Below, in pieces: positions 1,071 to 15,577 of a DNA stretch of 15,577 nt. How positions within the stretch are numbered: the first letter of the stretch is position 1; the number at the start of each line of letters is the position of its first letter. The DNA comes from Candidatus Hadarchaeales archaeon (GTDB taxonomy: Archaea > Hadarchaeota > Hadarchaeia > Hadarchaeales > Hadarchaeaceae): positions 1-15,577 of the forward strand of contig JAVZGN010000021.1 of NCBI GenBank assembly GCA_038872135.1, in the 5' to 3' direction. The notes under the pieces were generated by a model. That model was not told the DNA's origin and did not search any database. It saw only the letters and a list, made by a program, of their open reading frames with translations. A program made the translations under genes and the position numbers.

Positions 1071-1093
1071 CAATTAAAGATGGAGAAAAGAAG

Positions 1094-1100
1094 AATTAAA
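1094..1100 (-). promoter_or_regulatory. putative TATA box of the DUF763 gene (probably leaderless)
   Basis: TTTAATT on the minus strand 24-30 nt upstream of ATG 1070; no SD motif in between. Confidence 0.4.
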
Positions 1101-1127
1101 TCGAATGCTCGATACAAAGGCCATCAG

Positions 1128-1343
1128 TCACTTCAGCAAATAGTAGCCCGCTGCTTTCTCCCTTGCAACCCTCTTGGCATAGCCCTTGTTCACGAGCTCC
1201 ATGAGGGCGTTGTTGACCATCCCCTTCGGGAGCTTTGCGGCCCTCATGACATCATCTGCCGTTTTGAGGGTTTCAGGGTTCGTGCAGCCGAGCTTTTTAA
1301 GCGCATCGTACACCTTTTGAGCATTTGGGCTGAGTTCTGTCAT
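1128..1343 (-). CDS. small basic winged helix-turn-helix DNA-binding protein (71 aa)
   Basis: Pattern LSPNAQKVYDAL...TADDVMRAAKLPKGMVNNALMELVNKGYAKRV...GYYLL fits a three-helix plus beta-wing fold; 13 K/R versus 7 D/E; strong SD GAGGTGA at 1354-1348. Confidence 0.85.
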   Translation of the reverse strand: MTELSPNAQKVYDALKKLGCTNPETLKTADDVMRAAKLPKGMVNNALMELVNKGYAKRVAREKAAGYYLLK

Positions 1344-1377
1344 GGCATCACCTCTTCATCCACTCTCTCCTGCATTT

Positions 1378-2208
1378 TTAAAGCATTATCTCAAGGCTCA
1401 TGTCTACCGGCGGTGCTCTGAGAGTGATGTAGCTGGATGAAACTACATCAACTCCGGTGGCCGCAACCCTCCTGACATTGGAGAGATCTATCCCGCCAGA
1501 AGCCTCAAGGATAACTTTCTTCAACCCATGCTTTTTTAGCAACCTCACGGCCTTCTTCATCTCGCCAACACTCATGTTGTCTAGCATTACTATGTCTGCC
1601 CCAGCTTTGGCCGCCACCAGAGCATCTCTCGCATTCGTTACTTCGACTTCAACTTTTCCCTTCCGTGCAGATTTTGCCATCTTAACAGCTTTTTCAACGG
1701 AGCCGACGATCTTTATGTGATTGTCTTTTATCAAAATCTGATCACTCAAAGTATATCTGTGGGGACTTCCTCCACCAATTGCCACAGCCCTTTTATCAAA
1801 AACTGTGAGGAGGGGGGCAGTCTTTCTTGTTGCGGCCACGATTACCCTCAAGTTCCCCTTCCTCGCTTCTTCAACAAACTTCCTTGTGGTCGTGGCGATA
1901 CCGCTCATCCTCATGAGGAGGTTGAGGGCCGTCCTCTCACCTGCCAGGATCTTCCTTGCTTTTCCCGAGAGCTCCATTATTCTGATGTTTGGAGCAATCT
2001 CAGACCCGTCCCTCTTAAGAATTTTGACTTTTACTCCAAGCAGTCTGAAGAGAGCCGTCGCCTCTTTTACACCTGCTAGAACCCCATGCCCTTTTGCTAT
2101 TATCTCTGCCTTCGTCACCACATCATTTCCCACCAGCACTTCTGAGGTGACATCTCCTTTTCCAAGATCTTCTCTAACCATTTCCAGCAGCTTTTCTCGA
2201 ACATTCAT
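1378..2208 (-). CDS. nadC: nicotinate-nucleotide diphosphorylase (carboxylating) / quinolinate phosphoribosyltransferase
   Basis: Motifs EDLGKGDVTS, ERTALN..MSGIAT, TRKT, HR..LSD.ILIKDNH, EVEV, MLDN, EASGGI; directly downstream of nadX. Confidence 0.96.
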   Translation of the reverse strand: MNVREKLLEMVREDLGKGDVTSEVLVGNDVVTKAEIIAKGHGVLAGVKEATALFRLLGVKVKILKRDGSEIAPNIRIMELSGKARKILAGERTALNLLMRMSGIATTTRKFVEEARKGNLRVIVAATRKTAPLLTVFDKRAVAIGGGSPHRYTLSDQILIKDNHIKIVGSVEKAVKMAKSARKGKVEVEVTNARDALVAAKAGADIVMLDNMSVGEMKKAVRLLKKHGLKKVILEASGGIDLSNVRRVAATGVDVVSSSYITLRAPPVDMSLEIML

Positions 2209-2212
2209 TCCA

Positions 2213-3037
2213 TCAGCTCCCTAGCTGGAGGGGCTCCGTCATATTTCTAAGCATTCTTATGGCCGAAAGGGCCGCCAGATAGCTGGTTCTCGGGGACTCG
2301 GGAAATGGAAGGTTGTTTGCAACAGTGGTGATTTCTCCGCAATCTCCAATGATTTTGATTTCGTGGATGTTTCTTTTAATGGATGGATCTGCGACCACTC
2401 TCACCCTAGTTTTTTTCACCCCGATGGTTGCCAACGCCAGCGTGGCAGCAACATTGACGCTTGCTGGAAAAATCTTTACCGCTTCGCTTGCTGGTCCATC
2501 GAAAATCACCTTCGCTTTTTTGATTTTTGAAAGATCCAGTCTTTGGCGCCTGAGTTGTGATATCGAGGCGAAAGCCTTTGGGGGTTTCCTTGTAGTCAAA
2601 ACAACCTCTTTTATCTCCCCGACGGCTGCAGCCTTTGCTCCGTCAACTCCCACTATTGCACCGGATGGAACGAAGATTCTCCTCCCTTTCTTTTCTGCCA
2701 GAGAGAGGAGTCTCCTGAAAAGCTTCTCATCAGCGAGGGCCCCGACACTCATCACCATCAGATCCTTTCCGCTGTTGAGAATTTCCTCTGAATACTGCTC
2801 CACCGCCAGCTGTGAAGCCGCCTCAATTACCAGCTGAACCCCCCTGTCAGCGCAGATTTCTCTCACGCTTTTTGCAATCTTAGGTTTTGGTTCAAGTCTA
2901 TTCGATAGCAGAATAGCTTTTTCCTTCACGATATCATATACCCAAATGAGTTCTGCTTCTCCCGCTCTGCCTTCGCATATCGCCTTCGCCAGCGTTGAGC
3001 CAATCGCCCCACAACCGATAATTGCAATGCCCAGCAT
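2213..3037 (-). CDS. nadX: L-aspartate dehydrogenase (NAD biosynthesis)
   Basis: Rossmann motif IIGCGAIG, EAASQ, MSVGAL, PSGAIVG.D, TTRKPP, FP..VNVAATL, N.HEI, P..P.TS.LAALS; adjacent to nadC. Confidence 0.95.
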   Translation of the reverse strand: MLGIAIIGCGAIGSTLAKAICEGRAGEAELIWVYDIVKEKAILLSNRLEPKPKIAKSVREICADRGVQLVIEAASQLAVEQYSEEILNSGKDLMVMSVGALADEKLFRRLLSLAEKKGRRIFVPSGAIVGVDGAKAAAVGEIKEVVLTTRKPPKAFASISQLRRQRLDLSKIKKAKVIFDGPASEAVKIFPASVNVAATLALATIGVKKTRVRVVADPSIKRNIHEIKIIGDCGEITTVANNLPFPESPRTSYLAALSAIRMLRNMTEPLQLGS

Positions 3038-3059
3038 CCGAAATGATTAGGCATCTAAG

Positions 3060-3066
3060 TATTAAT
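3060..3066 (-). promoter_or_regulatory. putative TATA box for nadX-nadC
   Basis: ATTAATA on the minus strand 23-29 nt upstream of ATG 3037, consistent with a leaderless transcript. Confidence 0.4.
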
Positions 3067-3138
3067 CGTTAAGCAAAGGTTTTTGGGTCAGGTTCTTAGC
3101 CTCTTGGCAATTTTCGCTTCAGGCTTTCACAAAAGTAG

Positions 3139-3145
3139 TTAAATA
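3139..3145 (+). promoter_or_regulatory. putative TATA box (with purine-rich BRE-like CAAAAG upstream) for the 3166 gene
   Basis: TTAAATA 21-27 nt upstream of ATG 3166. Confidence 0.5.
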
Positions 3146-3165
3146 ACCTTTCCCAAAGTTGATTG

Positions 3166-4008
3166 ATGTCAACGCCAATTCCACCTCCAGAACCAGCCAA
3201 GCCCACCGAGCAACCGATACCTCCCAAACCGCAACCTTCCAAACCAAAGTTGATCACCCATGCAATAATAATCGGCGTGGGTGTTCTGATTGTTGCCATT
3301 ATCGTTGCTACGTCATTTTTTCCAATAACTCCCCCCGTGATTGAAAGGAAGTGCACATTAAGTGGTTATGTGCTAGCCGGCCCCACAGCGGAGTACAGGG
3401 TTGTGAACGCCACGGTTGAGGTGAAAGTCGGCGGTCGTTCATACACAGCAGTCACGGACAGCTGGGGAGCATACAGTCTTCAGTTGCCAACAGGTAACTG
3501 GCAGGTGAGAATAAAGGTTGGGGATAACATTCGATACACCGAGAACATCTCGGTTCCAGGCAGCCAGAGGGAAATGAAAAAAGACATTTACAACGTTATT
3601 CCAGAGCTGGCTTCTGGTGATGGCGGTTCTATAGGAGATGTCCGCGTGGTTTATGTTCCGGCAACTTCCCGTTTGACGGGATATGTTTTTGCCGGGAGCG
3701 AGAGGAGCTACCGTCTCTCCGGTGCAATGGTTGAGATCGAGGTCAGAGGACAAACCTACGCAACAACAACCGGTGGAAGCGGAGAGTATACTGTTGAAGC
3801 CCCGGTGGGAACATGGACAGCAAGGGTAAAAATAGGTGGAAATGTCAAGTCATCTGACACCATAAATGTTTCCATCGGTCAGAACTACCTCATAAAAGAG
3901 TGGTACAACATCGCTCCGGAGCTCATCCCAGATAAATCTGCGGATGGCGTGCGATGCGTATACGTTGAGAGTGGATGGAGGGAGACCCAGAGGATCAAGT
4001 TGGGCTAG
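3166..4008 (+). CDS. membrane-anchored surface protein with two tandem carboxypeptidase-regulatory-like (prealbumin/Ig-like beta-sandwich) domains
   Basis: Pro-rich N-terminus, one hydrophobic helix (AIIIGVGVLIVAIIVATSFF), then two ~105-aa repeats with pattern L.GYV.AG....YR...A.VE..V.G..Y...T...G.Y....P.G.W..R.K.G.N. ATG 3166 preferred over TTG 3163. Confidence 0.8.
   Translation: MSTPIPPPEPAKPTEQPIPPKPQPSKPKLITHAIIIGVGVLIVAIIVATSFFPITPPVIERKCTLSGYVLAGPTAEYRVVNATVEVKVGGRSYTAVTDSWGAYSLQLPTGNWQVRIKVGDNIRYTENISVPGSQREMKKDIYNVIPELASGDGGSIGDVRVVYVPATSRLTGYVFAGSERSYRLSGAMVEIEVRGQTYATTTGGSGEYTVEAPVGTWTARVKIGGNVKSSDTINVSIGQNYLIKEWYNIAPELIPDKSADGVRCVYVESGWRETQRIKLG
3355..3969 (+). repeat. intragenic tandem domain duplication (units 3355-3669 and 3670-~3969)
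   Basis: Hand alignment of the two units gives 33 identical residues in 85 ungapped positions; offset 315 nt. Confidence 0.85.
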
Positions 4009-4427
4009 ATTATTTCCACGCCCCCCTTCTGACTGACCATCACAGTAAAGTTTCTTAGGGCCTTGCGACGCTCGAGATATTCCCTCCCCAGCGTTTCAGT
4101 AATCCTCCTTACCAGATCAGAATAGTTGCAGGAAATTTTTATCCCCCTTTTATCAGCCATTCGGAAAATCTCCTCGCACGCATGATAGACGTTGGTACCC
4201 CTAGGAAACTCCACTTTCACCGGCCAGTTCAAAGTTTTTACCAGCCGCAATGTATTTTTTGATTTCTCCACATTTTCTTTCGCTTTTTTGATCAACGCTC
4301 CAACGTTTGACCGACTCGTTCCCAGCTCAGAAGCAATTCTCGAAATGCTCATCCCACGATTTCTCATCATCAGGACTTCCAGCTGTCGTCTTGTTAGATG
4401 GGTCTTACTTATGTCAACCATTTTCAC
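4005..4427 (-). CDS. tfx: Tfx family DNA-binding transcriptional regulator
   Basis: N-terminal HTH THLTRRQLEVL.MR.RG.S...IA.ELGTSR.NV....KKA.EN.EKSKNTL followed by a Tfx-type C-terminal domain (VEFPRGTNVY...EEIF..ADK.GIKI). Start GTG 4427 or ATG 4421. Confidence 0.9.
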   Translation of the reverse strand: MKMVDISKTHLTRRQLEVLMMRNRGMSISRIASELGTSRSNVGALIKKAKENVEKSKNTLRLVKTLNWPVKVEFPRGTNVYHACEEIFRMADKRGIKISCNYSDLVRRITETLGREYLERRKALRNFTVMVSQKGGVEII

Positions 4428-4469
4428 TTCACAATAATAATTTATCCACCAATTTTATTTAAAATAGCG
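4428..4469. promoter_or_regulatory. divergent promoter region tfx / molybdate transporter operon
   Basis: 42-bp AT-rich spacer; TTTAAATA on the minus strand (4463-4456) suits tfx; AATTTAT near 4439-4445 suits a leaderless start at 4470. Confidence 0.55.
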
Positions 4470-5630
4470 ATGTTAGGGGGCCTAAGATTCGATAGAATGG
4501 AGCTTGCGGGGTCGCTGGGAGACCTTGGCACGATGCTCCCTCTCCTCATCCCTCTCATCTTGGTAAATGGACTCAACGCCACAGTAGCTTTCCTGATGAT
4601 CGGTCTTTTCTACATTTTTACAGGACTCTACTATAGAATTCCAATCCCTGTGCAGCCCCTGAAGGCAGTCGCCGTAATCGCCATCTCAACTGGGGCATCG
4701 GCTCGGCTGATAGCTTCCGCGGGAATAATCATGGGGATTTTCCTCCTTTTCCTTGCCTTGACTGGGTTGATAAAAGAAGTTGCCAGGGTTTTCTCAAAGC
4801 CAGTGGTAAGGGGAATTCAAGCAAGCCTCGGTCTAATGCTATTCATCAAAGGATTTCAGTACATGAGCGGAGAGCAGATGTTCCTCGGTGGAGAGAAGAT
4901 TTTCCTTGGATCGCTTCCTCTGAATCTTGTCATCGCGTTTTTGGGCCTGCTCATCGCTGGGTGTCTTCTGACCTCTAGGAAAATCCCAGCTGCCATTGTC
5001 CTAGTATTGGCGGGTCTAGCAATTGGGCTTGTGTTCAAACCCCCTGAGCTGAGGCCTAGCCCAACTGCTCCCGCCCCGATCCTCCCAAACATTTCTGAGC
5101 TTCAGACAGCTTTTTCCCTACTTTTCCTCCCTCAGGTTCCAGTCACAATTGGCAATGCAATTATTTCCACCTCAGATCTCGCGGAAAAATATTTTGGGAA
5201 AAAGGGAAAGAAGGCGACTCCTAAAGTCCTAGCTGCAAGCATGGGTGTGGCTAACTTGGCTTCAGGATTTGTAGGGGGAATGCCCATGTGCCACGGCGCT
5301 GGAGGATTGGCTGCCCACTACCGGTTTGGAGCAAGGAGTGGCGGAGCAAATTTGATAATTGGAAGCCTCTTTCTCATCGTCGGGTTAGTCTTCGGCTCCT
5401 CCGCAGTTTTCGTGCTCGGGGCAATTCCACTTTCAATCCTAGGCGTGTTGCTCACTATTACTGGGTTACAACTTGTGATTTTGTTACAGGATCTCTCCGC
5501 CTCTAAGGATCTCGCAGTTGCCGGAGTGATAATTGGGATAACGCTGGCCACAAACCAGCTGGCGGCAGGGTTTATCATCGGAATAATCGTGTATTATCTG
5601 ATGAGGTGGTGGCCGTGGTCAGGCCGGTGA
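4470..5630 (+). CDS. putative molybdate/sulfate transporter (MOT1-like MFS family)
   Basis: Signature ELAGSLGDLGT.LP, P.PVQPLKA.A..AI, PQ.P.TIGNA, GGMPMCHGAGGLAAHYRFGARSG; many hydrophobic helices. ATG 4470 preferred because the track start 4398 overlaps tfx and the promoter. Confidence 0.9.
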   Translation: MLGGLRFDRMELAGSLGDLGTMLPLLIPLILVNGLNATVAFLMIGLFYIFTGLYYRIPIPVQPLKAVAVIAISTGASARLIASAGIIMGIFLLFLALTGLIKEVARVFSKPVVRGIQASLGLMLFIKGFQYMSGEQMFLGGEKIFLGSLPLNLVIAFLGLLIAGCLLTSRKIPAAIVLVLAGLAIGLVFKPPELRPSPTAPAPILPNISELQTAFSLLFLPQVPVTIGNAIISTSDLAEKYFGKKGKKATPKVLAASMGVANLASGFVGGMPMCHGAGGLAAHYRFGARSGGANLIIGSLFLIVGLVFGSSAVFVLGAIPLSILGVLLTITGLQLVILLQDLSASKDLAVAGVIIGITLATNQLAAGFIIGIIVYYLMRWWPWSGR

Positions 5631-6604
5631 AAGCTGAAGAAGCGGTTGGAAAACCGCTCGCCCACGATATCGTGAAGTATGGTCCGGGACTTAAGGCGGT
5701 CCTCTTCAAAAAAGGCCACGTGGTCAGGGAAGAGGACGTGGAAAAATTGAAGGATGCGGGCAATTACATCGTCTACATCGAGGAAGGGGGGCTGGAGGGA
5801 GTGCATGAAGACGATGCAGCTTTAAGGATGGCTACGGCATGCATGGGGCAGAATCTTCTCCACACCAAGCCGAACAAGGGGAGGGTTGATCTCTTGGCGT
5901 CGATTTCGGGGGTGCTGAGGGTAAAAGAAGCCATCGTGAAAGAGGTTAATTTGGTAGAGGATTTTGTCTTGGCCACTCTTCCGGACTTTTCAGGCGTGAG
6001 GAAGGGTCAGAGGGTAGCTTCAATGAAAATAGTACCCCTCAGCGTTGATGAGGCTAAAATGAGAGAGGTTGAAGGCATTCTTTCTCGAGAGAAGCCGGTT
6101 GTGGAAGTTTGTGCTCCAGTCGTGAAAAGAATTGGAGCGATAATCACTGGAACAGAAATATTTGAGGGCCGGGTGAAAGATGCTTTCCTTCCGGTTCTCC
6201 AAAAAAAGCTCGGGGAGTTTGGGCTGCAGGTAGAGGAATCCTGCGTAATGCCGGATGATGAAAGAAAAATTGCAGAAAAGATAATAGAGTTCAAAAACAG
6301 CGGAAAAGAGTTGATCTTGGTGTGCGGGGGCATGGCCGTTGACATTAAAGATGTCACCGCGAGCGCCATTAAACTGGCCGGGGCGGATGTGGTTAGGAGA
6401 GGTATCCCAGCGTTTCCAGGCTCAATGATGATGATCTCCTACTTGGGCGATGTGGCGGTTGTTGGGCTCCCCGCCTGTGTCATCCCAGATGAAAGAACCA
6501 CATTTGACATCTTCCTGCCGAAGCTGCTGATGAAGCGCAAGATTGAAAGGGAAGAAATTGCAGACATTGCTCCAAGAGGGCTGGAAATCTTGAGCGGGGG
6601 CTGA
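5615..6604 (+). CDS. molybdopterin-binding protein (MoeA-like / MoCF_biosynth domain)
   Basis: AVG..LAHDI...FKKGH, VHEDDAA, GRV.L.A...G, IITGTEIFEGRVKDAF, GGM.VD..DVT..AI, G.PAFPGSM, VGLPAC, T.FD..LP. GTG 5615 preferred (SD GAGGTG at 5603-5608); overlaps the transporter stop. Confidence 0.88.
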   Translation: MVRPVKAEEAVGKPLAHDIVKYGPGLKAVLFKKGHVVREEDVEKLKDAGNYIVYIEEGGLEGVHEDDAALRMATACMGQNLLHTKPNKGRVDLLASISGVLRVKEAIVKEVNLVEDFVLATLPDFSGVRKGQRVASMKIVPLSVDEAKMREVEGILSREKPVVEVCAPVVKRIGAIITGTEIFEGRVKDAFLPVLQKKLGEFGLQVEESCVMPDDERKIAEKIIEFKNSGKELILVCGGMAVDIKDVTASAIKLAGADVVRRGIPAFPGSMMMISYLGDVAVVGLPACVIPDERTTFDIFLPKLLMKRKIEREEIADIAPRGLEILSGG

Positions 6605-6606
6605 GC

Positions 6607-7200
6607 TTGAAAAAACCTACCGTTGGGGTCGTTATTCTCGCCGCCGGGGAATCAAGTAGGATGGGCGAGCAAAAGCTGCTTCTTCCACTCATGGGACACA
6701 CCCTTCTCGAGCACGTCGTCGGTTCATTTAGAGGAATCGCTGATAGGATTATGGTGGTGCTTGGGCATAATCCGGAGGCTATTTTCCCCCTCCTCCAGAG
6801 GCTGAATGTTGAGTGGGTGGTGAATGAAGAGTATCAACTTGGAATGGTGACCTCTTTCAAGCGTGGGCTGGCAGAGCTTAGGAATTGTGATGCGGTGTTT
6901 CTGGCTCTTGGTGATCAGCCACTTGTGGACAAAACCTTTCTTTTAAAAGCAATCGATGCCTGGAGGGATGGAGCAAAAATAGTCTGCCCAGTTTTCAGGG
7001 GGAAAAAAGGCCACCCTGTTCTCTTTGATCAAAGCCTCTTTGGGGAAATTCTCAGCCTCGACGAAAATCAATTCATCCGTGATGTCATCCACAGGCATGC
7101 CGATCTCATGAAGGTCATCGAAGCCGGGAAATGGGCAATAACTGATGTAGACACACCAGAGGACTTTTTAAAACTCAAAAAAGAATTGGAAAAAAGCTAG
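6607..7200 (+). CDS. mocA: molybdenum cofactor cytidylyltransferase-like nucleotidyltransferase (MocA/YgfJ type)
   Basis: ILAAGESSRMG..KLLL, GM.TS...G, LGDQP, GHPVLF, DVDTPED; the GHPVLF motif fits the MocA branch rather than MobA. Confidence 0.82.
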   Translation: MKKPTVGVVILAAGESSRMGEQKLLLPLMGHTLLEHVVGSFRGIADRIMVVLGHNPEAIFPLLQRLNVEWVVNEEYQLGMVTSFKRGLAELRNCDAVFLALGDQPLVDKTFLLKAIDAWRDGAKIVCPVFRGKKGHPVLFDQSLFGEILSLDENQFIRDVIHRHADLMKVIEAGKWAITDVDTPEDFLKLKKELEKS

Positions 7201-8288
7201 GCGTATCTTATTGCTCTCGTTGGGCAGACCGAAACACAAAGCCCGCACATGTAGCACCGCGCTTTGTCAACTTGGGCAGATTTTCCAACAACATGAATAG
7301 CTCCATATGGGCAGTGTTTTTCGCAGAGGCCGCAGGCAGTGCATTTTGAGACAAGGACCTCCACCGGTTCCGCTGTTAGTCTGGGTTCAGCGGGAAGATG
7401 TGGAAGCGCTTTTCCCCTTATTTCCGAAATCGAGTTGTAGTTTTTTGCCCGCATGAACTTTGCTATTTCATCCGCGATTATTCCATAGATGTTCGGCCCC
7501 CGAATGATGGCTGCTGTGCAGACCTGAACTGCAGAGGCTCCAGCCATGATAAATTCCACAGCATCTCTCCCAGAAGAGATCCCGCCCACTCCAATGACCG
7601 GAATGCTCACAGTTCTCGCGATATCCGCCACACATCTAACGGCAAGAGGTTTAATCGATGGCCCAGATAACCATCCATACCCACTTGCGCTCCCCAGCAT
7701 AGGCATCGCGTTTTCTATGTCTATGCTCAAACAAGGGCCCAAAGTGTTTATGGCGACTATTCCATCCGCCCCTGCGCTTTCCGCAGCTTTAGCAAACTCC
7801 TTTATGTCTAATACATTTGGGCTAAGCTTCACAAATACCGGGACATCCACAACTTCTTTAGCGGCTTTTGTGGCTTCAATCACTGGCGTTGGATCATTTC
7901 CGAGATAGTGAGTCGAGAGCTCCAGGGCATCCGCTCCAGCCTCAACAACTTTTGGCGCAATCTCCCTGATCTCCGCGGCCCTGTAGCCTATGCTGGCTAT
8001 CAGCGGCAACCCGGCCTTTTTGGCTTTGGGGTACTCCACCTTCAACCATTGCTCAAGGGGAAGATCTGTCCAGAGCTCAGCGTTCAGAAGGCTATCTTTC
8101 ACTTTGACTATGCAAGGGCGCGGGACCTTTGCGGGCTGAACACTAACAGTCTTCGCAACGAGAGCACCGGCCCCTCCTTCCGCTACCTTTAAAAGAGCCT
8201 CTCCATCCATCACATTCGGGCCAGCGGCCGGCATCACAGGATTTCTCAGTTTAAGACCGCAGAGTTCCACACTGAGATCGACCATCAT
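7197..8288 (-). CDS. dihydroorotate/dihydropyrimidine dehydrogenase-like FMN oxidoreductase with C-terminal 2x[4Fe-4S] domain; non-canonical active site
   Basis: Class 1 DHOD barrel motifs (LRNP, AKT, VKLSPN, INT, LSG..IKP.A, IGVGGI, AGASAVQV) plus CTACGLC...CP and CYMCGLC...CP; ELSTHY replaces the ELNxSCP catalytic loop. Confidence 0.88.
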   Translation of the reverse strand: MMVDLSVELCGLKLRNPVMPAAGPNVMDGEALLKVAEGGAGALVAKTVSVQPAKVPRPCIVKVKDSLLNAELWTDLPLEQWLKVEYPKAKKAGLPLIASIGYRAAEIREIAPKVVEAGADALELSTHYLGNDPTPVIEATKAAKEVVDVPVFVKLSPNVLDIKEFAKAAESAGADGIVAINTLGPCLSIDIENAMPMLGSASGYGWLSGPSIKPLAVRCVADIARTVSIPVIGVGGISSGRDAVEFIMAGASAVQVCTAAIIRGPNIYGIIADEIAKFMRAKNYNSISEIRGKALPHLPAEPRLTAEPVEVLVSKCTACGLCEKHCPYGAIHVVGKSAQVDKARCYMCGLCVSVCPTRAIRYA

Positions 8289-9625
8289 CTACCACCCCTC
8301 TGCAGCTCCTGCCAGAGCTTTTCGGCAGCTCTTCTCGCAATCGCAGCCGCTTGCGATTCATCAATGGTAAGCAATTTTTTCTCTTTTACCACAACTTTCC
8401 CCCCGACAATAACAGTTTCCACATCATCCCCATCCACGGTGTTCACCAAATGTCCAAGAACTGTATCTGGTCTTATAGGCGTTGGAGCGAGAGTTGGGTT
8501 GATAATGATGAGGTCAGCGAGCTTCCCGATTTCAATCGATCCAACCTCATTTTCCAGCCCATAGAGCTCAGCCCCTTTTATCGTGGCCATCTCCAGAACC
8601 TCTCGCGGAGAAATTACCCGAGGATCTCTAGTAGAAACCTTGTGAATGAGATAGGCTGCCCGGATATTCTCAAACCCATCAAAGATGTATCCATCATTTC
8701 CAAGCCCAACTGGAATCCCTCGCTGGAGCATCTTCGGAACGGGGGCAACCCCAACAGCGTTCAGCATGTTGCTCATTGGATTGTGGGCCACTTTGGCACC
8801 GCTCTTCTGAATTATGTCTAGCTCCTCATCAGAGACATTCACACAGTGGGCGAGCACAACATCTGGACCGAGGAAGCCAACCTCCTTCAACCTTTCAACA
8901 GTTCTCATTCCATATCTTTCATAATTGTGATAGACGTCCACAAGCCCCTCAGAGGTGTGAATGGTCATCGGAACTTTATATTTGCTGGCTAATTGCCTCG
9001 CATACGCCAAAAGCTCATCAGAAACGGTGAAAGACGCATGAACACATATCATCCCCATGATCCTGGAAATCCTCTTTTTCTTCAATTTCTTTATGAATCT
9101 TTCATTCTCCCTCATCCCGCTCGCTCCCTCCGCCCTGCTGTGCCTTTCGGTGGCTTCGAATGAAATTATTCCTCGAATCCCGGACTGTTCGACCGCCGCC
9201 GCAATTTTGTCTAGCACCCCGGCGATGGATTTTGGCCCAGAGTAGGTGTCTGCGAAAAGAGTTGTCCCGGTTTTTAAAAACTCGACGCAGGAGATTAGGG
9301 CGCTGGCATAGGCGTCATCTTTTTTCATCGTCTCATCCATCGGCCACCAGACCCTCTGGAGAATCTGTGAAAAATCAGTAGGTGGCTGTATTTTGAGGGG
9401 AGCACCGCGAAGGAGCATCCCGTAAAGATGTGTGTGGGCGCAGATCAGGCCTGGCATGACTATTTTTCCCTTCGCATCAATTACCTCATCCGCTTTTGGG
9501 GTCCTGCCTTTTTTCCCAATCGACTGAATTCTTCCATCCTCAACAGCTATTGAACCACCCTGAATTATCCTGCAGTTTTTGTCCATCGTGACTATACATC
9601 CGTTTTTTATCACAAGGTCAACCAT
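8285..9625 (-). CDS. ssnA: SsnA-like metal-dependent amidohydrolase
   Basis: PGLICAHTHLY, PPTDF..IL..VWW..D, HASFTVSD, H.SEG, HNP.SNM.NAVG, GLGNDG, G..ADL; SD AGGAG at 9633-9629; its stop overlaps the start of the flavoprotein gene. Confidence 0.8.
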   Translation of the reverse strand: MVDLVIKNGCIVTMDKNCRIIQGGSIAVEDGRIQSIGKKGRTPKADEVIDAKGKIVMPGLICAHTHLYGMLLRGAPLKIQPPTDFSQILQRVWWPMDETMKKDDAYASALISCVEFLKTGTTLFADTYSGPKSIAGVLDKIAAAVEQSGIRGIISFEATERHSRAEGASGMRENERFIKKLKKKRISRIMGMICVHASFTVSDELLAYARQLASKYKVPMTIHTSEGLVDVYHNYERYGMRTVERLKEVGFLGPDVVLAHCVNVSDEELDIIQKSGAKVAHNPMSNMLNAVGVAPVPKMLQRGIPVGLGNDGYIFDGFENIRAAYLIHKVSTRDPRVISPREVLEMATIKGAELYGLENEVGSIEIGKLADLIIINPTLAPTPIRPDTVLGHLVNTVDGDDVETVIVGGKVVVKEKKLLTIDESQAAAIARRAAEKLWQELQRGGR

Positions 9626-9709
9626 TCTCTCCTATAAAGGTAGAAAACCATAATTTAAAACTTGACATCTCAACACTGGTGTTATTAATCGCTGAAAAAA
9701 ATTGTAGTG
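9626..9709. promoter_or_regulatory. divergent promoter region ssnA-like / cyclic amidohydrolase
   Basis: TTTTAAAT on the minus strand (9660-9653), TTATTAAT on the plus strand (9682-9689), with an AACAC-TG-GTGTT inverted repeat (9672-9683) between them. Confidence 0.5.
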
Positions 9710-11041
9710 ATGCATGATCTTGTAATCAGAAATGGGAAAATGATTGTCAAAGGAAAGCTTGTGAGCGGCGAAATCGCTATTGATGATGGGATCATCAGGA
9801 GGATTGCTGTAAGTGGTGTTGAAAAAGGCGATGTTGAGATAAACGCCCATGGGAGATATATCCTCCCGGGAGCTATCGATGTTCACGCGCACATCTTTGA
9901 CCGGAGATTTCAGCACAGAGAATCGTTTGACAGCGGGACGATGGCTGCAGCAGCTGGGGGGGTCACCACAGTAATCATAATGCCTTTAGACACTCCAGTC
10001 CTCACCGTCTCCGAAGTAAAAAAACTGATAGAGCTTGGTGAAAAGAATAGTTTGATAGATTTTGCCATTCACGCAGGCAACATGACTGCCGAGGCCATCA
10101 GAGAAGTTAAAAAGCTCGTTTCTGTTGGAGTTGCATCTTTCAAAACATTTACATGCTCCCCATATCTTTTGGAGAAGGGGGAAATCGAGCGATTGATGGA
10201 TGAGATAAAAAAAGCGAATGGAATTCTGTTTGTTCACGCCGAGGATGAAGATGAGCTGAGACGAGGGCTCGAAAGGGTGAGAGGTAGAAAAGACCCGCTG
10301 GCCCACCACGAGGCGAGAACAGTGAGGGCCGAGGTGAAGGCTGTAAAAGAAGTTATTCGGATGAGTAGATATCATCGCTGTAAGACGCACTTCGCACACA
10401 TCACTTCTGCAGAGGCCTGTGAGGTGATAAAAAAGGGTAAGCGAAAAATCATCACAGCCGAAACCTGTACCCACTACCTGATTTTCACTAGGGAGGATGT
10501 TAAGACTCATGGACCCTATCTGAGGGTCAATCCCTCCATAAAAACAAAAAAAGACAGGGCGGCATTGTGGAGGGCTCTCTCGGAAGGCACGCTAGATCTC
10601 GTGGCCACTGACCATGCTCCAGGCACTGTGGATGAAAAAGAAGTCGGATGGGACGACATATGGAAGGCCCAGATTGGGATCCCCGGAGTAGAGAACCTTC
10701 TCCCGCTGATGCTAGAAGAAGGAGTGTGCAAGAAAAGGATATCTCTCCGGCGGCTCATTGAATGTTTGTCGATTGCACCGGCAAAAATTTTTGGCCTATA
10801 TCCACGAAAAGGGGCATTGCTCGAAGGCTCAGATGCTGATTTGGTGATAGTGGATCTCAAGAAAAAAACTAAGATAACCGCGGATAAACTCCACTACAAA
10901 GTCGGCTGGACGCCATACGCCGGGCTAAGGTCAGTCGCTCCACCAGAGTATACCATTTCGCGCGGAGAGGTGGTTTCAGCCGGCGGGGAGATCATTGGAA
11001 GAGTTGGACGCGGGAAATTTCTATCAAGAGCGTGCTCGTGA
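9710..11041 (+). CDS. cyclic amidohydrolase (allantoinase/hydantoinase/dihydroorotase superfamily), allantoinase-like
   Basis: LPGAIDVHAH, AAAAGGVTT...MPL, FKTF (carboxy-Lys), VHAED, HFAHIT, AETC.HYL, ATDHAP, PAK.FGL...KG....GSDAD. No Arg two residues after the HxH, which argues against PyrC. ATG 9710 (GTG 9707 alternative). Confidence 0.9.
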   Translation: MHDLVIRNGKMIVKGKLVSGEIAIDDGIIRRIAVSGVEKGDVEINAHGRYILPGAIDVHAHIFDRRFQHRESFDSGTMAAAAGGVTTVIIMPLDTPVLTVSEVKKLIELGEKNSLIDFAIHAGNMTAEAIREVKKLVSVGVASFKTFTCSPYLLEKGEIERLMDEIKKANGILFVHAEDEDELRRGLERVRGRKDPLAHHEARTVRAEVKAVKEVIRMSRYHRCKTHFAHITSAEACEVIKKGKRKIITAETCTHYLIFTREDVKTHGPYLRVNPSIKTKKDRAALWRALSEGTLDLVATDHAPGTVDEKEVGWDDIWKAQIGIPGVENLLPLMLEEGVCKKRISLRRLIECLSIAPAKIFGLYPRKGALLEGSDADLVIVDLKKKTKITADKLHYKVGWTPYAGLRSVAPPEYTISRGEVVSAGGEIIGRVGRGKFLSRACS

Positions 11042-11043
11042 TT

Positions 11044-12288
11044 CTATCTTTTCAACGCGGAGATTTTCAGAGCAACTATTGCATCCCGAACATCTGAAAA
11101 CACAGGAGTCCTTACCCTTGAAATTTCTGTGATATCACCGGCTTTTGCGCCAAGAGTGACTAGGACCACTGGCTTCTCCTTGGATTTCTCGCATTTCTCC
11201 ACAACTTTTTTTAAATCATCTCTCCTAAGTTTTCCCGAACCTGTTGCCACCACAACTAAAAGGGCATCGATTTCTTTTTCCTCCAAAACTCTGTCCGCCG
11301 CCACCTGGAAATCTTCGCCAGTGGCTTCCTCCCCGAGGTTCACAAAACCATCGACTTTAACCTCTTTCTTGAATTTTTCAAAAGCTTCTTGAGGGATAGT
11401 GGCCAATGTCATCTCGCTTTTTTCTATCCATTTCCTGGCAAGCAGTCCCGCAGACTTAGAATTAGTCACGACGGCAATTTTTCTACCCCTCATGGGCCTG
11501 CCACCGACCAACATCTTTGCTCCACAAAACATCTCTTCCAATGTCTCCACTGGAATTCCTCCAGCCTGCTTTATTGCCGAGACAAAAATTTTGTTTTCTA
11601 CCGATGCACTGAAGACCAAAACCGGCTTTTCCACCGAGATGCTTTTGATGAACTCGATATCCTTTCTCTTCAGGATATTTTTCAGGACTAGGCCGATGAT
11701 TTCAGTTTCTTTATCCTGTTTGAGAAATTCCAGTATTTGCGTCAGCTGCACTCCAGTCTCGCCCAGGCACACGAATTTACTCATGCCAACTCCGCATCTC
11801 TCCCCCCTTTCGGCAGCCATCTCCGCGAGAAGGGGGTCATCTGCAACAACGGCCATCTTCCCCCTCTGGAAATTCCCAGAAATCGTCGCCACCAGCCCAT
11901 TTCCGGTGTTCACCACCCCAAAAGAGGCAGGCCCCACGAGAACCCCGCGTTTGGAAAAAGATAATAGCATCTGGTTAGTTTTTTCCCTTCCTTTAGACAG
12001 GAGCAGCACACATGTGGATTTCTGAAGGATTTTTTTGATGTTTTTTTCGAGGATTTCTGGCGGGAGCAGGATCATGACCAGCATGTTCTTTTTGATCGAT
12101 GAGAGGGGCTCGGCCCCCGCAAGCTTTCCCTGCACATCCACGACATGAACCTTTCCCTTAAAGCCTGAGAGCCGGTCCTTCAGTAGAAAAAAACGCGTGG
12201 AATAAACCTCATCCTCGCCGCGAAGCTCCGACGCCCCGACAACGGCAACTTCTCTTGGCTCAAACAGATTTTTAAGCTCAGGCTTCAT
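11044..12288 (-). CDS. degenerate acyl-CoA synthetase (ADP-forming) alpha-like subunit, lacking the catalytic His loop
   Basis: LFEP..VAVVGAS, LVGP..FG..N, KPV, AIKQAG, G..IAVVTNS, EIDALLV, KPVV give the ACD-alpha architecture; SQSG, GN and SHTG motifs are absent; ORF intact and coupled to the beta gene by an ATGA overlap. Confidence 0.78.
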   Translation of the reverse strand: MKPELKNLFEPREVAVVGASELRGEDEVYSTRFFLLKDRLSGFKGKVHVVDVQGKLAGAEPLSSIKKNMLVMILLPPEILEKNIKKILQKSTCVLLLSKGREKTNQMLLSFSKRGVLVGPASFGVVNTGNGLVATISGNFQRGKMAVVADDPLLAEMAAERGERCGVGMSKFVCLGETGVQLTQILEFLKQDKETEIIGLVLKNILKRKDIEFIKSISVEKPVLVFSASVENKIFVSAIKQAGGIPVETLEEMFCGAKMLVGGRPMRGRKIAVVTNSKSAGLLARKWIEKSEMTLATIPQEAFEKFKKEVKVDGFVNLGEEATGEDFQVAADRVLEEKEIDALLVVVATGSGKLRRDDLKKVVEKCEKSKEKPVVLVTLGAKAGDITEISRVRTPVFSDVRDAIVALKISALKR

Positions 12289-13004
12289 TCGCCGCCATCC
12301 CCGACAAAGATTCTGGCGTCAACCGCAACCGCTCCCTTTCCAGCAGCAAACACAAAAAGTGGATTGATGTCTAGCTCTTGAATCTGCGGGAACTCGGCCA
12401 CCAGGATACCCACCTTTTCTATCACCTCGGCCACGGCCAGAATGTCTGCGGGAGGCTCTCCCCTTATCCCAGCGAGCACCGGATATCCTTTGATCTCCTT
12501 GATCATTTCAACAGCCTCATCTTTGGTGAGGGGTGCCAGCCTGAAACTCGTATCTTTTAGCACTTCAACCCAGATACCCCCAAGCCCAAACATAACAGTG
12601 GGACCAAATGACTTATCTTGCAAACCACCGACAATCGCCTCCCTGCCGGGGGGGACGTGCTCTTGGACCGTGACACCAAGAATCCTAGCATTGGGACTGT
12701 AGCTCTTGGCGCTGTTCATAATATCTTCAAAAGCTTTTCTCACCTCCATCTCCCCACCTATCCCCACCCTCACTCCGCCAGCGTCGCTTTTGTGAATAAT
12801 ATCTGGGGACGCTATTTTCATGACAACAGGGTAATGGATTTCTCTCGCTATCCTGACAGCCTCATCGGGAGTTGTAGCAAGCTCAGTTCGATTGACCGGG
12901 ATTCCAGCCAGACTCAAAACTTTTTTGGCATCAATCTCTCCCAGTTCTTTTCTACCACTTTTCTTTGCACCATCCAGAATTTCCGCTATTTTTGATTTCT
13001 CCAT
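12285..13004 (-). CDS. acdB: acetate/acyl-CoA ligase (ADP-forming) beta subunit, ATP-grasp
   Basis: YPVVMKIASPDIIHKSDAGGV, VQE, E.IVG...D..FGP.VMFGLGGIWVEVLKD.SFR.AP, L.G.RG..P.D, ELDINPL, AVDARI. Confidence 0.93.
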   Translation of the reverse strand: MEKSKIAEILDGAKKSGRKELGEIDAKKVLSLAGIPVNRTELATTPDEAVRIAREIHYPVVMKIASPDIIHKSDAGGVRVGIGGEMEVRKAFEDIMNSAKSYSPNARILGVTVQEHVPPGREAIVGGLQDKSFGPTVMFGLGGIWVEVLKDTSFRLAPLTKDEAVEMIKEIKGYPVLAGIRGEPPADILAVAEVIEKVGILVAEFPQIQELDINPLFVFAAGKGAVAVDARIFVGDGGE

Positions 13005-13263
13005 TTTTCCCTAATCAAAAAGGTTTCAGAATATATAGCATTTTTGTTTTAGCCAATTTTGGCTCCAATTTATAGTTATTTTCCAAAAAATTACCGTTTA
13101 ATAGCTTGAAATAATAAATGGCGAATTTTTTATATGAATTATTTATAAAAACGTCATAAAATAGATTAAACACTTGAATCAGAGTTATTTGTCTTTTGAA
13201 TTTTTGACCCTTAAATCAGTCCTTTTAATTAACTGAGCCATTTTATAACGCGAAAATAGAAAA
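13005..13263. promoter_or_regulatory. AT-rich intergenic regulatory region with TATA box for acdB and inverted repeats
   Basis: 25% GC by hand count over 13021-13260; TATATATT on the minus strand (13037-13030); AGCCAA-TT-TTGGCT at 13051-13064. Confidence 0.55.
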
Positions 13264-13737
13264 CTAGCCTCCAGGAATCTGATCAAGCGAATTTATCGTC
13301 ACATCCCCGTCATATAATCTCCCGGCTCTAACACTGACGATTGTAACCCTTATAGATTTTCCTATCTCAAGATTGGCCCCTCGGAGCTGAACCTCGGCAT
13401 ATGCCCAATCGCTCTGTCTGAACCTCTGGGGATTCTCAAATGTCCAGCAATAGAATTCATTGTCGATTCCTCTTATCGGCTCTCTCGCCCACCCTCTTAT
13501 GAAATCTGTGGTTGGTTTTGAAACTTCAAAAGAAAGAGTTTCTCCCCCAATGTGCTGGATGTGAAATCTAACGACATTTTCATTGACCAACCCAGCATAA
13601 ACGGCCACTTCCACATATCTGGGCCTGAAAGGAGAATAATATTGGCTTAACCATACAGCTATTGGAGCCGCAGCCGCCACTGTTATCCCCACAAGAAGGA
13701 TTGTAGCAACAATCGGAGAGATTCCCTCCCCATTCAT
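13264..13737 (-). CDS. archaeal type IV pilin-like protein (class III signal peptide)
   Basis: MNGEG|ISPIVATILLVGITVAAAAPIAVWL N-terminus and the I.H.GGE motif typical of archaeal pilins; ATGA overlap with the upstream gene. Confidence 0.88.
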   Translation of the reverse strand: MNGEGISPIVATILLVGITVAAAAPIAVWLSQYYSPFRPRYVEVAVYAGLVNENVVRFHIQHIGGETLSFEVSKPTTDFIRGWAREPIRGIDNEFYCWTFENPQRFRQSDWAYAEVQLRGANLEIGKSIRVTIVSVRAGRLYDGDVTINSLDQIPGG

Positions 13738-14624
13738 CTTATTCCCTCTATCAGCTCCGCCCTGGCAACCTCAAACCCAGAGGTGGGGGTTATTGTGACC
13801 TCAAATTTCACAACCGCCGCCCCGTCTATCCTTGGAAGTAGCCCCCTAAACTTCTGGAAATACATTACTCTCCTTCTTTTGGTTGGTCCAGCCGTTTCCC
13901 ACTGGAAGTTTAGAACACCATCCACGCAAGAGGAGATCTCTTCTTCCTTCCTCTCGTCGAGAATGCGGGCGGTCATCGGAAGATAAATGAGTCCTCCCCA
14001 TTTTTTGGCAGCTCTCTGAAGTCCCCTCAAAAATAGGGTAAAATCATACCATCTTGCCTCTGTGTCGGAATAAAGCCTAGCGAGGTCTGTGAGGGTGTAG
14101 ATGATCACAGTATTGCCGGAAGCAGATCGGCTCATGAAGTCTGCCAGCGACTCCAGTGCAGTCTTTGGTTTGATTGCCGGTGCGGCGGCCGTTCTATGAA
14201 GAGTCGCAAATGCACTTGTAAGAGCTTTCATCTTTTCTGAGGTCTCTTCCTCTTTTAATCTGTCCGAGATCCACTCAAGCGGCACCGGCGATGTCCTGAA
14301 ATAATCCTCGGAAAAATCTCGGAACTTTACATTATCCCGGAAGAGGGCGAAGAGATCCTGCTCAAAACTCATCGAAACTTCATTCAAGAGGTCTTCTGGG
14401 CTCCTGGTAAATGTAACCCACCAGACTTCCCCGGGAAAGATGGAGTCTGGCTCTGCCGGTGCAACAAGCTTTTTTTTCATTGCATAGGTCATTATCGCCG
14501 ACGTCATCAGAAACTCTTTGTTTCCTGCCCCTATCTCTCCTCTAAGAAGAATCAGCGAGCCAGGCGGGAATCCCCCGCCTATGAGAGAATCCAGTGACAA
14601 TATCCCGCTGGGTATCCTGGGCAT
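13734..14624 (-). CDS. KaiC/RAD55-like RecA-superfamily protein, degenerate Walker motifs
   Basis: IPSGI.SLD.LIGGG.PPGS.ILL.GE.GAG, DGV..F.W, R......KFRG, F...I....GF; Walker A reads GAGNKE. ATG 14624 preferred (TTG 14633 alternative). Confidence 0.88.
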   Translation of the reverse strand: MPRIPSGILSLDSLIGGGFPPGSLILLRGEIGAGNKEFLMTSAIMTYAMKKKLVAPAEPDSIFPGEVWWVTFTRSPEDLLNEVSMSFEQDLFALFRDNVKFRDFSEDYFRTSPVPLEWISDRLKEEETSEKMKALTSAFATLHRTAAAPAIKPKTALESLADFMSRSASGNTVIIYTLTDLARLYSDTEARWYDFTLFLRGLQRAAKKWGGLIYLPMTARILDERKEEEISSCVDGVLNFQWETAGPTKRRRVMYFQKFRGLLPRIDGAAVVKFEVTITPTSGFEVARAELIEGIR

Positions 14625-14674
14625 TTTCCTCAAAATACATCTATGCTGGGTGCTTAAATTTCATTCGATGAACT

Positions 14675-15391: not shown

Positions 15392-15428
15392 CGCATCACC
15401 CAGCGACAATTAGGATAACGAATGTGGC

Positions 15429-15436
15429 TATTTAAG
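15429..15436 (-). promoter_or_regulatory. putative TATA box for minD
   Basis: CTTAAATA on the minus strand, placing a start site near 15405, just upstream of the SD. Confidence 0.5.
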
Positions 15437-15577
15437 TCTTCAGAGCCTAGTGCTGTGTTGCATAACTTCCCAATGTGGGCTTGATTTTTCTCTTCCGTCA
15501 CCTCCCTCATGCTCCAGTCACCCATGGTGGCTGGGTGGTCTTGTCATACCTTATAACCGAGTTGTAGAAGAGGAACT

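Follow-up and report, generated by a model that had tools for sequence, protein, structure and literature searches.

A Free-Standing Relative of Dihydroorotate Dehydrogenase with a Cysteine-Less Active-Site Loop in a Hadarchaeales Archaeon, a Candidate Ferredoxin-Type Oxopurine Reductase

The Gene and Its Product

The window analysed here is a complete stretch of 15,577 nucleotides from Candidatus Hadarchaeales archaeon (NCBI GenBank assembly GCA_038872135.1, contig JAVZGN010000021.1, positions 1 to 15,577 of the forward strand), and the gene of interest within it encodes P0001, a protein of 363 residues specified by one open reading frame (ORF) at 7197..8288 of the minus strand. P0001 joins a flavin mononucleotide (FMN) barrel of the dihydroorotate dehydrogenase (DHOD) type to a ferredoxin domain, and its features place it outside PyrD, PreA and full-length YgfK as these are defined. 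A first-pass annotation, made from the letters alone, had read it as a ferredoxin-driven heterocycle (purine) reductase, and this reading gains computational support from a profile match to YgfK, from a context of ssnA-, mocA- and hyuA-like genes and from a distribution that is not that of PyrD. The features of the gene are the following:

7197..8288, minus strand: P0001, FMN barrel with two [4Fe-4S] clusters, member of the STHY clade of DHOD-like proteins and proposed ferredoxin-type oxopurine (2,8-dioxopurine) reductase (sequence, fold, profiles and tree)
7452..8276, minus strand: DHO_dh (PF01180) TIM-barrel FMN domain, residues 5-279 (Pfam, 1.5e-45)
7206..7361, minus strand: C-terminal ferredoxin domain with two CxxCxxCxxxCP motifs, residues 310-361 (Pfam and motif search)
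7905..7922, minus strand: ELSTHY, the shortened, Cys-less active-site loop (translation and alignment)
7662..7676, minus strand: GWLSG, with Trp206 at the canonical Gly position (translation and alignment)

The length of 363 residues and the two ferredoxin-type clusters announced by the first-pass annotation agree with the ORF, with two Fer4 stretches detected by Pfam within residues 310-361 and with two CxxCxxCxxxC motifs whose first residues are 316 and 345. Translation of the minus strand likewise returns ELSTHY and, in place of the usual GGxSG, GWLSG. The absence of an NAD(P)H/flavin adenine dinucleotide (FAD) module and of a preT or pyrK neighbour was also correctly foreseen: Pfam finds neither Pyr_redox_2 nor Fer4_20 in P0001, and the window holds no Pyr_redox_2/PreT-like or PyrK-like gene. 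Among the NCBIfam models, those for PyrD and PreA rank top, every one of them under its curated cut-off. The closest solved structure by sequence is Lactococcus lactis DHODB (1ep1, E 9.4e-38), and a Foldseek search with the AlphaFold model of P0001, built from 23 homologues and with a mean predicted local distance difference test score (pLDDT) of 82.2, retrieved pig dihydropyrimidine dehydrogenase (DPD, E 8e-30) and L. lactis DHODB (template-modelling score 0.84 on the target).

A Rebuilt Active-Site Loop Marks a Separate Clade

In DHOD, the Cys of the ELNxSCPN loop is the catalytic base. The loop of P0001 had been described as shorter and devoid of this Cys, and the alignment with 1ep1 bears this out: ELST------H---YLGNDP stands, with gaps and no Cys, opposite 20 letters of the L. 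lactis enzyme, so that the loop is some 10 residues shorter. A homologue search across 1.84 billion representatives gave 13,262 matches at E <=0.001 and, from the best 150 matches listed, 133 sequences of at least 290 residues, P0001 included, were aligned. Short loops were present in 80 of the 129 sequences with good barrel coverage, the canonical SCP loop in 37 and other types in 12. In the corresponding tree, the Cys-loop enzymes (PyrD-like and PreA-like) are set apart from several short-loop clades. When E. coli PreA, canonical PyrD sequences from relatives, and sequences from named loci of bacteria and archaea were added to the tree, P0001 belonged to a clade of 43 tips with SH-like support of 0.998, denoted here as the STHY clade, which takes in all 11 added named clade members and no canonical PyrD or PreA. 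The canonical enzymes outside it read ELNLSCP(H/N) or ECNFSCPQ.

The remodelling was followed column by column in a 146-sequence alignment, comparing 42 members of the STHY clade with 37 Cys-loop sequences. The column of the catalytic Cys holds Tyr128 in P0001, with Tyr in 36/42 and Phe in 3/42 clade members, against Cys in 37/37 Cys-loop sequences. The Ser of ELNxSCP is replaced by His127 (His in 33/42 of the clade) and the Asn of ELN by Ser125 (Ser in 36/42), while the stretch from E123 to K154 has a median of 32 residues in the clade against 42 in the Cys-loop set. Trp206 is conserved in 41/42 members at a position that is Gly in 35/37 canonical sequences, and further clade-specific residues are Trp73 (40/42), Tyr102 (40/42) and Gly184-Pro185 (42/42). 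Lys46, Asn69, Lys154 and Asn181, which we take to be FMN- and ring-binding positions of DHODs, are mostly retained. Cys59 (Cys in 20/42, Asn in 11/42) and Cys186 (Cys in 22/42) are too poorly conserved across the clade to be obligatory catalytic residues.

Public names do not reflect this separation. As the first-pass annotation had anticipated, relatives are named dihydroorotate dehydrogenase, or merely "4Fe-4S binding protein", in their sources, and P0001-type names in ESM Atlas clusters are limited to generic DHOD or dihydrouracil dehydrogenase. The cluster members of 10 clade representatives supplied three names (Armatimonadota, Bipolaricaulia and a generic "dihydroorotate dehydrogenase"), with no Clostridioides name among them.

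An Apparently Specific, Although Weak, Likeness to YgfK

E. coli YgfK (b2878, 1032 residues) is an NAD(P)H:2,8-dioxopurine oxidoreductase (DOPOR), whose family model TIGR03315, "putative selenate reductase YgfK", is now DOPOR. The first-pass annotation had cited a set of motifs in its N-terminal domain, and these proved accurate: the K-12 protein contains PVGPAAGPH, ELKTVQ, EKPCI, NTEWSTE and EYLKAW, all aligned to the N-terminus of P0001, the two proteins sharing PAAGP, KTV, PCI and N.E.W. BLASTP aligned them over 137 columns at 23% identity (pairwise E 1e-4), and a second segment placed YMSGRALFPL of YgfK opposite GWLSGPSIKPL of P0001. Both have an aromatic residue at the canonical Gly position (Tyr in YMSG, Trp in GWLSG) and a short loop ahead of G.(D/P)P (LSTMHGCPP against LSTHYLGNDP); the stretches compared around the latter were LSTMH-GCPP...FVKLNPTLL in YgfK and LSTHYLGNDP...FVKLSPNVL in P0001. 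Pfam finds no DHO_dh domain in E. coli YgfK.

In addition, hhalign was used to compare residues 1-450 of one YgfK sequence with the profiles of six clades, each restricted to the barrel. The STHY clade gave a probability of 65.8% (E 5.7e-5, 239 columns, YgfK residues 43-388), followed by the VSY (18.1%), Pxx (4.6%), PreA-like (4.4%), PAY (3.7%) and PyrD-like (2.0%) clades, and separate runs returned an identical ranking. A similarity to YgfK beyond the general barrel, without which the initial idea would have had to be abandoned, is thus suggested, the STHY profile being the best of the six. Judged from these comparisons, the likeness between P0001 and YgfK appears specific yet weak, resting on one YgfK sequence. 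The barrel of YgfK is enlarged by long insertions, and the protein adds a Fer4_20 domain and a Pyr_redox_2 module for FAD/NAD(P)H, none of which P0001 has; with its C-terminal ferredoxin domain YgfK amounts to about 1000 residues, and it uses NAD(P)H as donor.

Gene Neighbourhood in the Window

The gene context is the strongest evidence for function. The neighbours concerned are:

8285..9625, minus strand: SsnA-like amidohydrolase of 446 residues, proposed ring-opening partner that would pull the reduction forward (NF005540, TIGR03314 and BLAST)
9707..11041, plus strand: cyclic amidohydrolase of the dihydroorotase/hydantoinase/allantoinase family, divergent from the ssnA-like gene, proposed to act in a HyuA-like second ring opening (profiles and BLAST)
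6607..7200, plus strand: MocA/YgfJ-like molybdenum cofactor cytidylyltransferase, convergent with P0001 (TIGR03310, 165 bits, cut-off 186)
5606..6604, plus strand: protein with a MoCF_biosynth (molybdopterin-binding) domain (domain match)
4398..5630, plus strand: MOT1-type molybdate transporter (PF16983, 5.6e-52)
4005..4427, minus strand: Tfx-family DNA-binding protein, possible regulator of molybdenum-related genes (TIGR00721, 112.8 bits, cut-off 60.25)

This arrangement echoes the mocA-ygfK-ssnA order of E. coli, where the genes run mocA-ygfK-ssnA-ygfM-xdhD with hyuA a few genes upstream; YgfK and P0001 thus have mocA, ssnA and hyuA neighbours in common. Two of its elements, the overlapping SsnA-like gene upstream and the MocA/YgfJ-like gene downstream, were absent from the first-pass annotation. 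For the SsnA-like protein, the SsnA models rank top but below cut-off (NF005540, 395 vs 444 bits; TIGR03314, 376 vs 455 bits), and its identity to E. coli SsnA is 31% (E 3e-61). The TGA stop of its gene overlaps the ATG of P0001 in an ATGA, which suggests that translation of the two is coupled. The cyclic amidohydrolase shares 27% identity with E. coli HyuA (E 7e-62), and in two relatives (G003 and G010) its orthologue occurs alongside a separate PyrC encoded in a pyr operon. The 81-bp spacer between the two divergent genes (9626-9706) is AT-rich and, by eye, shows TATAAA and TTTAAA boxes that could be archaeal TATA elements serving both directions. A scan of the window for sigma-70 promoters and terminators was uninformative in this archaeon.

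The Neighbourhood in Relatives

The unit formed by the cyclic amidohydrolase, SsnA and reductase genes was kept in 3/3 relatives examined, G001 (77% identity), G010 (73%) and G003 (52%). A wider scan, of one genome per species and with a 10-sequence alignment as query, yielded at least 585 relatives with the clade's motifs, and the counts that follow refer to the best 80 of these, at 52-79% identity. Their loci come from Hadarchaeota, Undinarchaeota, Thermoplasmata, Chloroflexota, Acidobacteriota, Halanaerobiales and several Bacillota, and neighbouring ORFs were typed by their best match to a panel of proteins from the window, the genome and E. coli. An SsnA-like gene was present anywhere in the locus in 57/80 and no more than two genes away in 50/80, and the large subunit of xanthine dehydrogenase (XDH) in 40/80, with one or the other present in 63/80. 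YgeY-like genes were found in 25/80 loci, HyuA-like or cyclic amidohydrolase genes in 15/80, and carbamoyltransferases, purine/urate permeases and molybdenum cofactor maturation genes in 11/80 each, while carbamate kinase (4/80) and YgeX (2/80) were rare. Near-complete clusters of the urate type surround clade members in Desulfotomaculum (L071), Syntrophomonadaceae (L081), Syntrophaceticus (L097), Peptococcaceae (L113) and a Bacillota metagenome-assembled genome (MAG; L118), drawing on genes for YgeX, YgeY, HyuA, carbamoyltransferase, YqeA, YqeB/C, MocA and UacT.

Some loci depart from the common arrangement. In one Chloroflexota locus (L100, 7188-9086), the clade member lies within an ORF of 632 residues behind a PnrA-type nucleoside ABC transporter. 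In three other Hadarchaeota MAGs (L054, L055 and L056), a second SsnA paralogue, 39-40% identical to that of the window, is found in convergent orientation just downstream of the reductase gene; the second module of L055 also contains PreA and PreT homologues, that of L054 an ORF whose best panel match is YgfK, and the L056 sequence ends after the paralogue. Relatives of this type may possess two reductase/amidohydrolase pairs.

Candidate Members of a Purine Route Elsewhere in the Genome

The genome to which the window belongs (G000; 1.08 Mb, 91% complete) encodes further candidate members of a purine route on other contigs, among them XDH homologues, a carbamoyltransferase and a carbamate kinase. 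An XdhD-like molybdenum hydroxylase on contig C22 shares 40% identity with E. coli XdhD over 791 residues, scores 664 bits with TIGR03313 and is accompanied by its FAD and 2Fe-2S subunits; a gene of the aldehyde:ferredoxin oxidoreductase (AOR) family, of 645 residues, abuts this three-subunit enzyme (G000:C22:2576-8092). A second XDH-family enzyme is encoded on C3, and an orthologue of the C3 type adjoins the cluster in a further Hadarchaeota MAG (L063). An XdhC/YqeB-like gene is also present, as are three small ORFs with two [4Fe-4S] motifs each, which are candidate ferredoxins. Two carbamoyltransferases, on C18 and at G000:C1:113032-114054, are unassigned: neither reaches any NCBIfam cut-off, and their identity to YgeW is about 32%. 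The gene on C18 lies about 1.7 kb from that of a YqeA-like carbamate kinase of 45% identity (G000:C18:15925-16980 and C18:18661-19626), and its product is the best panel match, at 40-44% identity and above E. coli YgeW, for the carbamoyltransferases of five bacterial loci. Genes for YgfK, PreT and UacY-type proteins were not found by tblastn in the genome (E. coli PreT and YgfK at 1e-8), and none of the Hadarchaeota papers listed by a literature search mentions XDH.

Several other genes near these loci deserve mention. A PALP-family gene beside the C3 hydroxylase was considered as a possible YgeX and rejected as a threonine synthase. The C3 hydroxylase is also adjoined by a eukaryote-type topoisomerase IB gene (G000:C3:37109-38893), and in relatives (L044-L046; L032-L034) a topoisomerase IB gene comes directly after the reductase gene or a few genes downstream, a trace of synteny that may link the C3 hydroxylase and reductase loci. 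The gene of 594 residues that follows the cluster in relatives was discarded as a pathway enzyme because it encodes a type IB topoisomerase. An SsnA paralogue on C13 adjoins the gene for S-adenosylhomocysteine hydrolase, a neighbour that, taken by itself, hints at a different role.

Comparison with Known Systems

The published system closest in concept is the reductive uric acid pathway of gut bacteria. According to the accessible parts of two 2025 studies (10.1101/2025.05.19.654654, which corresponds to PMC12507026, and 10.1101/2025.04.24.650524), E. coli YgfK reduces 2,8-dioxopurine, made from urate by XdhD. As reported in the portion available, one of these studies observed the product of YgfK only with SsnA, and its authors invoked unfavourable thermodynamics and related them to the co-localisation of ygfK and ssnA. 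In Clostridioides difficile, UacX (UniProt Q181U4) was proposed as a FAD-less, PF01180-type replacement for YgfK, a 2,8-dioxopurine ("yanthine") reductase, and the same source, as far as its accessible sections go, describes it as a homologue of PydA, of family PF01180, that has a site for FMN, lacks a FAD domain, is similar to the ferredoxin-dependent PydAc and probably has ferredoxin as its donor (Life Metab 2025, PMC12507026). The notion of a FAD-less, ferredoxin-type YgfK replacement is hence not new, having been in print since 2025. In the literature searched, the name UacX in this sense occurs only in PMC12507026, other uses being unrelated; the survey in the accessible text of that paper covers bacteria only, and the word "archaea" is absent from its main text.

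Compared by description, UacX and P0001 are both FMN proteins of PF01180 that carry Fe-S clusters and lack a FAD/NAD(P)H domain. The cluster of UacX, whose presumed donor is ferredoxin, includes the adjacent SsnA, an XDH-family hydroxylase and HyuA; P0001 has SsnA, HyuA-like and MocA genes in the window and XDH homologues elsewhere, with YgeX, YgeY and UacY-type genes not found by tblastn. A loop change from Cys to Tyr such as that of P0001 is not mentioned for UacX in the accessible text of PMC12507026.

Three other enzymes share part of this architecture. PydAc of Clostridium chromiireducens (A0A399ILH0), as described in the accessible part of its report (Biosci Rep 2020, PMC7332683), has an FMN domain of the DPD type that runs on ferredoxin or viologen, and lacks FAD/NADPH domains, as P0001 does, and a C. 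pasteurianum variant combines the FMN domain with one ferredoxin domain in one ORF. Unlike P0001, the C. chromiireducens enzyme is, according to the same source, 37% identical to pig DPD, reduces uracil and has two ferredoxin domains. P0001, for its part, lacks the loop Cys, falls in another clade and is partnered by SsnA instead of Pyd genes. E. coli PreA/PreT and pig DPD, the latter with C671 as its loop Cys, resemble P0001 in having an FMN barrel and a C-terminal domain with two [4Fe-4S] clusters; P0001 is, however, only 31% identical to E. coli PreA (tblastn), has no PreT partner and reads ELSTHY in place of ECNFSCPQ. The class 1B PyrD represented by L. lactis DHODB has equivalents of Lys46, Asn69, Lys154 and Asn181, whereas P0001 differs from it in having no catalytic Cys, PyrK or pyr operon context and in its extra ferredoxin domain.

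Proposed Function and Alternatives

On balance, we favour the view that P0001 corresponds to the FMN domain of YgfK in a free-standing, ferredoxin-type form, working like UacX of the reductive uric acid pathway. From the data above we infer a substrate, an electron donor, a proton donor and a downstream pathway, which may be outlined as follows. Reduced ferredoxin or another low-potential donor would pass electrons to the two C-terminal [4Fe-4S] clusters and from these to FMN, and the reduced flavin would transfer a hydride to an oxopurine at its pyrimidine ring; the likeliest such substrate is 2,8-dioxopurine, which would be supplied by one of the two XDH-family molybdenum hydroxylases of the genome. 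The proton would come from a residue of the rebuilt loop, where Tyr128 occupies the column of the catalytic Cys and His127 is adjacent to it. The SsnA-like amidohydrolase, presumably coupled in translation, would then open the reduced ring and pull the unfavourable reduction onward, the divergent cyclic amidohydrolase would open the second ring, and the carbamoyltransferase and carbamate kinase encoded elsewhere in the genome could finally yield ATP.

A number of observations weigh against this proposal. The match to YgfK is weak in absolute terms (hhalign probability of 66%), and the score of the LSTHY/LSTMH segment was reached by 29/500 shuffles, so that this segment alone is merely suggestive. 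The candidate proton donors, His127 and Tyr128, vary within the clade (33/42 and 36/42, respectively), and the pLDDT of the model drops below 50 at residues 57-63 and 183-207, precisely the putative lids. Motif conservation among the 80 loci is expected by construction, because the clade's own motifs served as search patterns, and 17/80 loci, all of them from Chloroflexota, have none of SsnA, XdhL, HyuA-like or YgeY genes nearby. YgeX, YgeY and purine permeases gave no tblastn match at 1e-8 in the 91%-complete genome, and the downstream route is therefore incomplete or different. Lastly, in the accessible text of PMC12507026 the assay method for UacX, with reduced methyl viologen, is described without a result.

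A more ambitious scenario can be put forward only tentatively, and it may well not hold as a whole. In it, the STHY clade would be a free-standing sister or precursor of the N-terminal domain of YgfK and would dearomatise oxopurines, a Tyr/His proton donor replacing the Cys of DHOD and DPD, and in Hadarchaeota a purine fermentation driven by ferredoxin and linked to carbamate kinase would have the clade at its core; with de novo pyrimidine synthesis entirely lost from about one third of the relatives sampled (10/31), the scavenging and catabolism of nucleobases would take a central place in how these live in the subsurface.

The alternative that survives best, although we consider it unlikely, is that P0001 employs the same flavin/Fe-S chemistry and amidohydrolase coupling on another N-heterocycle, such as a hydantoin, an oxopurine other than 2,8-dioxopurine, or a ring provided by the second molybdenum hydroxylase. 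The pocket is indeed heavily rebuilt and varies in the clade (Cys59 in 20/42, Asn in 11/42; Cys186 in 22/42), and the failure to find YgeX and YgeY in the genome, the 17 loci without urate-type neighbours and the second SsnA paralogue by the cluster in L054-L056, with PreA/PreT in L055, all speak for this alternative, the paralogue hinting at several substrates. Nevertheless, the full clusters around clade members are of the urate/2,8-dioxopurine type (L071, L081, L097, L113 and L118), and the best XDH-family match in the genome is to XdhD.

It is more doubtful still that P0001 is a PydAc-like, ferredoxin-dependent dihydropyrimidine dehydrogenase acting on uracil or thymine, with the cyclic amidohydrolase that adjoins the cluster as dihydropyrimidinase. 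Its architecture, an FMN domain and a ferredoxin domain with no FAD/NADPH module, fits the variants described in the accessible part of PMC7332683, and pig DPD is among its best structural matches. Yet the loop Cys is gone, with Tyr in a column that is Cys in all 37 Cys-loop sequences, E. coli PreA included; the score with the NCBIfam PreA model (NF006183) is 216 bits against a cut-off of 335; and the STHY clade is separate from the PreA-like clade. Moreover, the partner gene is SsnA-like and not a ureidopropionase, XDH genes co-occur, and the relative L055 has a PreA/PreT pair of its own.

Pyrimidine Synthesis in the Lineage

The last alternative, that P0001 is the dihydroorotate dehydrogenase (PyrD) of the organism, its fused ferredoxin domain replacing PyrK, is very improbable, given that it lacks a catalytic Cys or Ser loop and that relatives possess a canonical PyrD in addition to the P0001 type; the usual pyrimidine-synthesis label of the gene is probably wrong. 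What could be adduced in its favour is that P0001 is the sole PF01180 match above cut-off in the assembly, that its best NCBIfam rows are PyrD models and that the neighbouring cyclic amidohydrolase exceeds the pyrC_multi subfamily cut-off (295 vs 279). In the genome itself, then, the first-pass annotation's check for a separate canonical pyrD turned up P0001 alone. However, P0001 scores under both PyrD cut-offs (NF005574, 240 vs 269 bits; TIGR01037, 234.6 vs 270 bits), for which the true PyrD of a congener (G003) reaches 350.7 and 330.2 bits, and canonical PyrD (about 300 residues, 193-238 bits) is present in 21 of the 31 genomes compared, with PyrB above its cut-off in the same 21. Both are missing in the same 10 genomes (G000, G001, G004-G007, G014-G016 and G020), all of which keep the type of 360-380 residues, as judged by ORF length and score.

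The congener G003 carries both proteins: an operon pyrF-pyrE-pyrB-pyrI-pyrK-pyrC-pyrD, all but pyrF above cut-offs, and a P0001 orthologue with SsnA and cyclic amidohydrolase neighbours. Four genes of this operon have no match in the present genome; its pyrD and pyrC match only the two genes of the P0001 cluster (37% and 31% identity), and its pyrB only an ornithine carbamoyltransferase (29%). None of the three carbamoyltransferases of the genome is PyrB, and the Fe-S domain of PyrK (PF10418) has no match there. Because the genome is 91% complete, the absence of PyrK, PyrB and the pyr operon is not proven by these results. The joint lack of PyrD and PyrB in 10/31 genomes suggests that the whole de novo pyrimidine operon was lost in part of the lineage; either the lineage is without the whole pathway or one operon failed to assemble, and P0001 is a separate paralogue either way.

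In the search for PyrF, the sole OMPdecase-family match was rejected as not a clear PyrF, being the C-terminal part of an AOR-like ORF of 816 residues. This ORF (G000:C17:15767-18217, plus strand; L038:767-3217) joins a complete aldehyde:ferredoxin oxidoreductase (AFOR_N, AFOR_C) to an OMPdecase/HUMPS-family domain (86.9 bits), and could represent a fusion, a missed stop or a frameshift.

Implications

If the proposed function is correct, hundreds of genes that at present go by the names of dihydroorotate dehydrogenase, dihydrouracil/dihydrothymine dehydrogenase or "4Fe-4S binding protein" would be ring reductases of anaerobic purine breakdown, and pathway reconstructions that score such genes as PyrD would be wrong; in this genome, the error would mask an apparent pyrimidine auxotrophy. 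The range of the reductive uric acid pathway, reported from gut bacteria in 2025, would be widened to Hadarchaeota, Undinarchaeota, Thermoplasmata, Acidobacteriota and Halanaerobiales. The STHY clade would also offer a compact model, of 363 residues, for the poorly understood FMN domain of YgfK, with the mechanistic twist that Tyr128 takes the position of the catalytic Cys, and Trp206 that of a conserved Gly. The change from Cys to Tyr in the active site and the tie to the N-terminal domain of YgfK are the parts still worth experiment.

Other Genes of the Window

The remaining genes, all on the minus strand, are unrelated neighbours. NadC and aspartate dehydrogenase, of NAD synthesis, are encoded at 1378-3037; two ORFs at 11044-13004 correspond to the ATP-grasp and CoA-ligase parts of an ADP-forming acyl-CoA synthetase; and the region 13264-15409 contains a pilin-like gene, the gene for a protein of 299 residues without an assigned family and that for a MinD/ParA ATPase.

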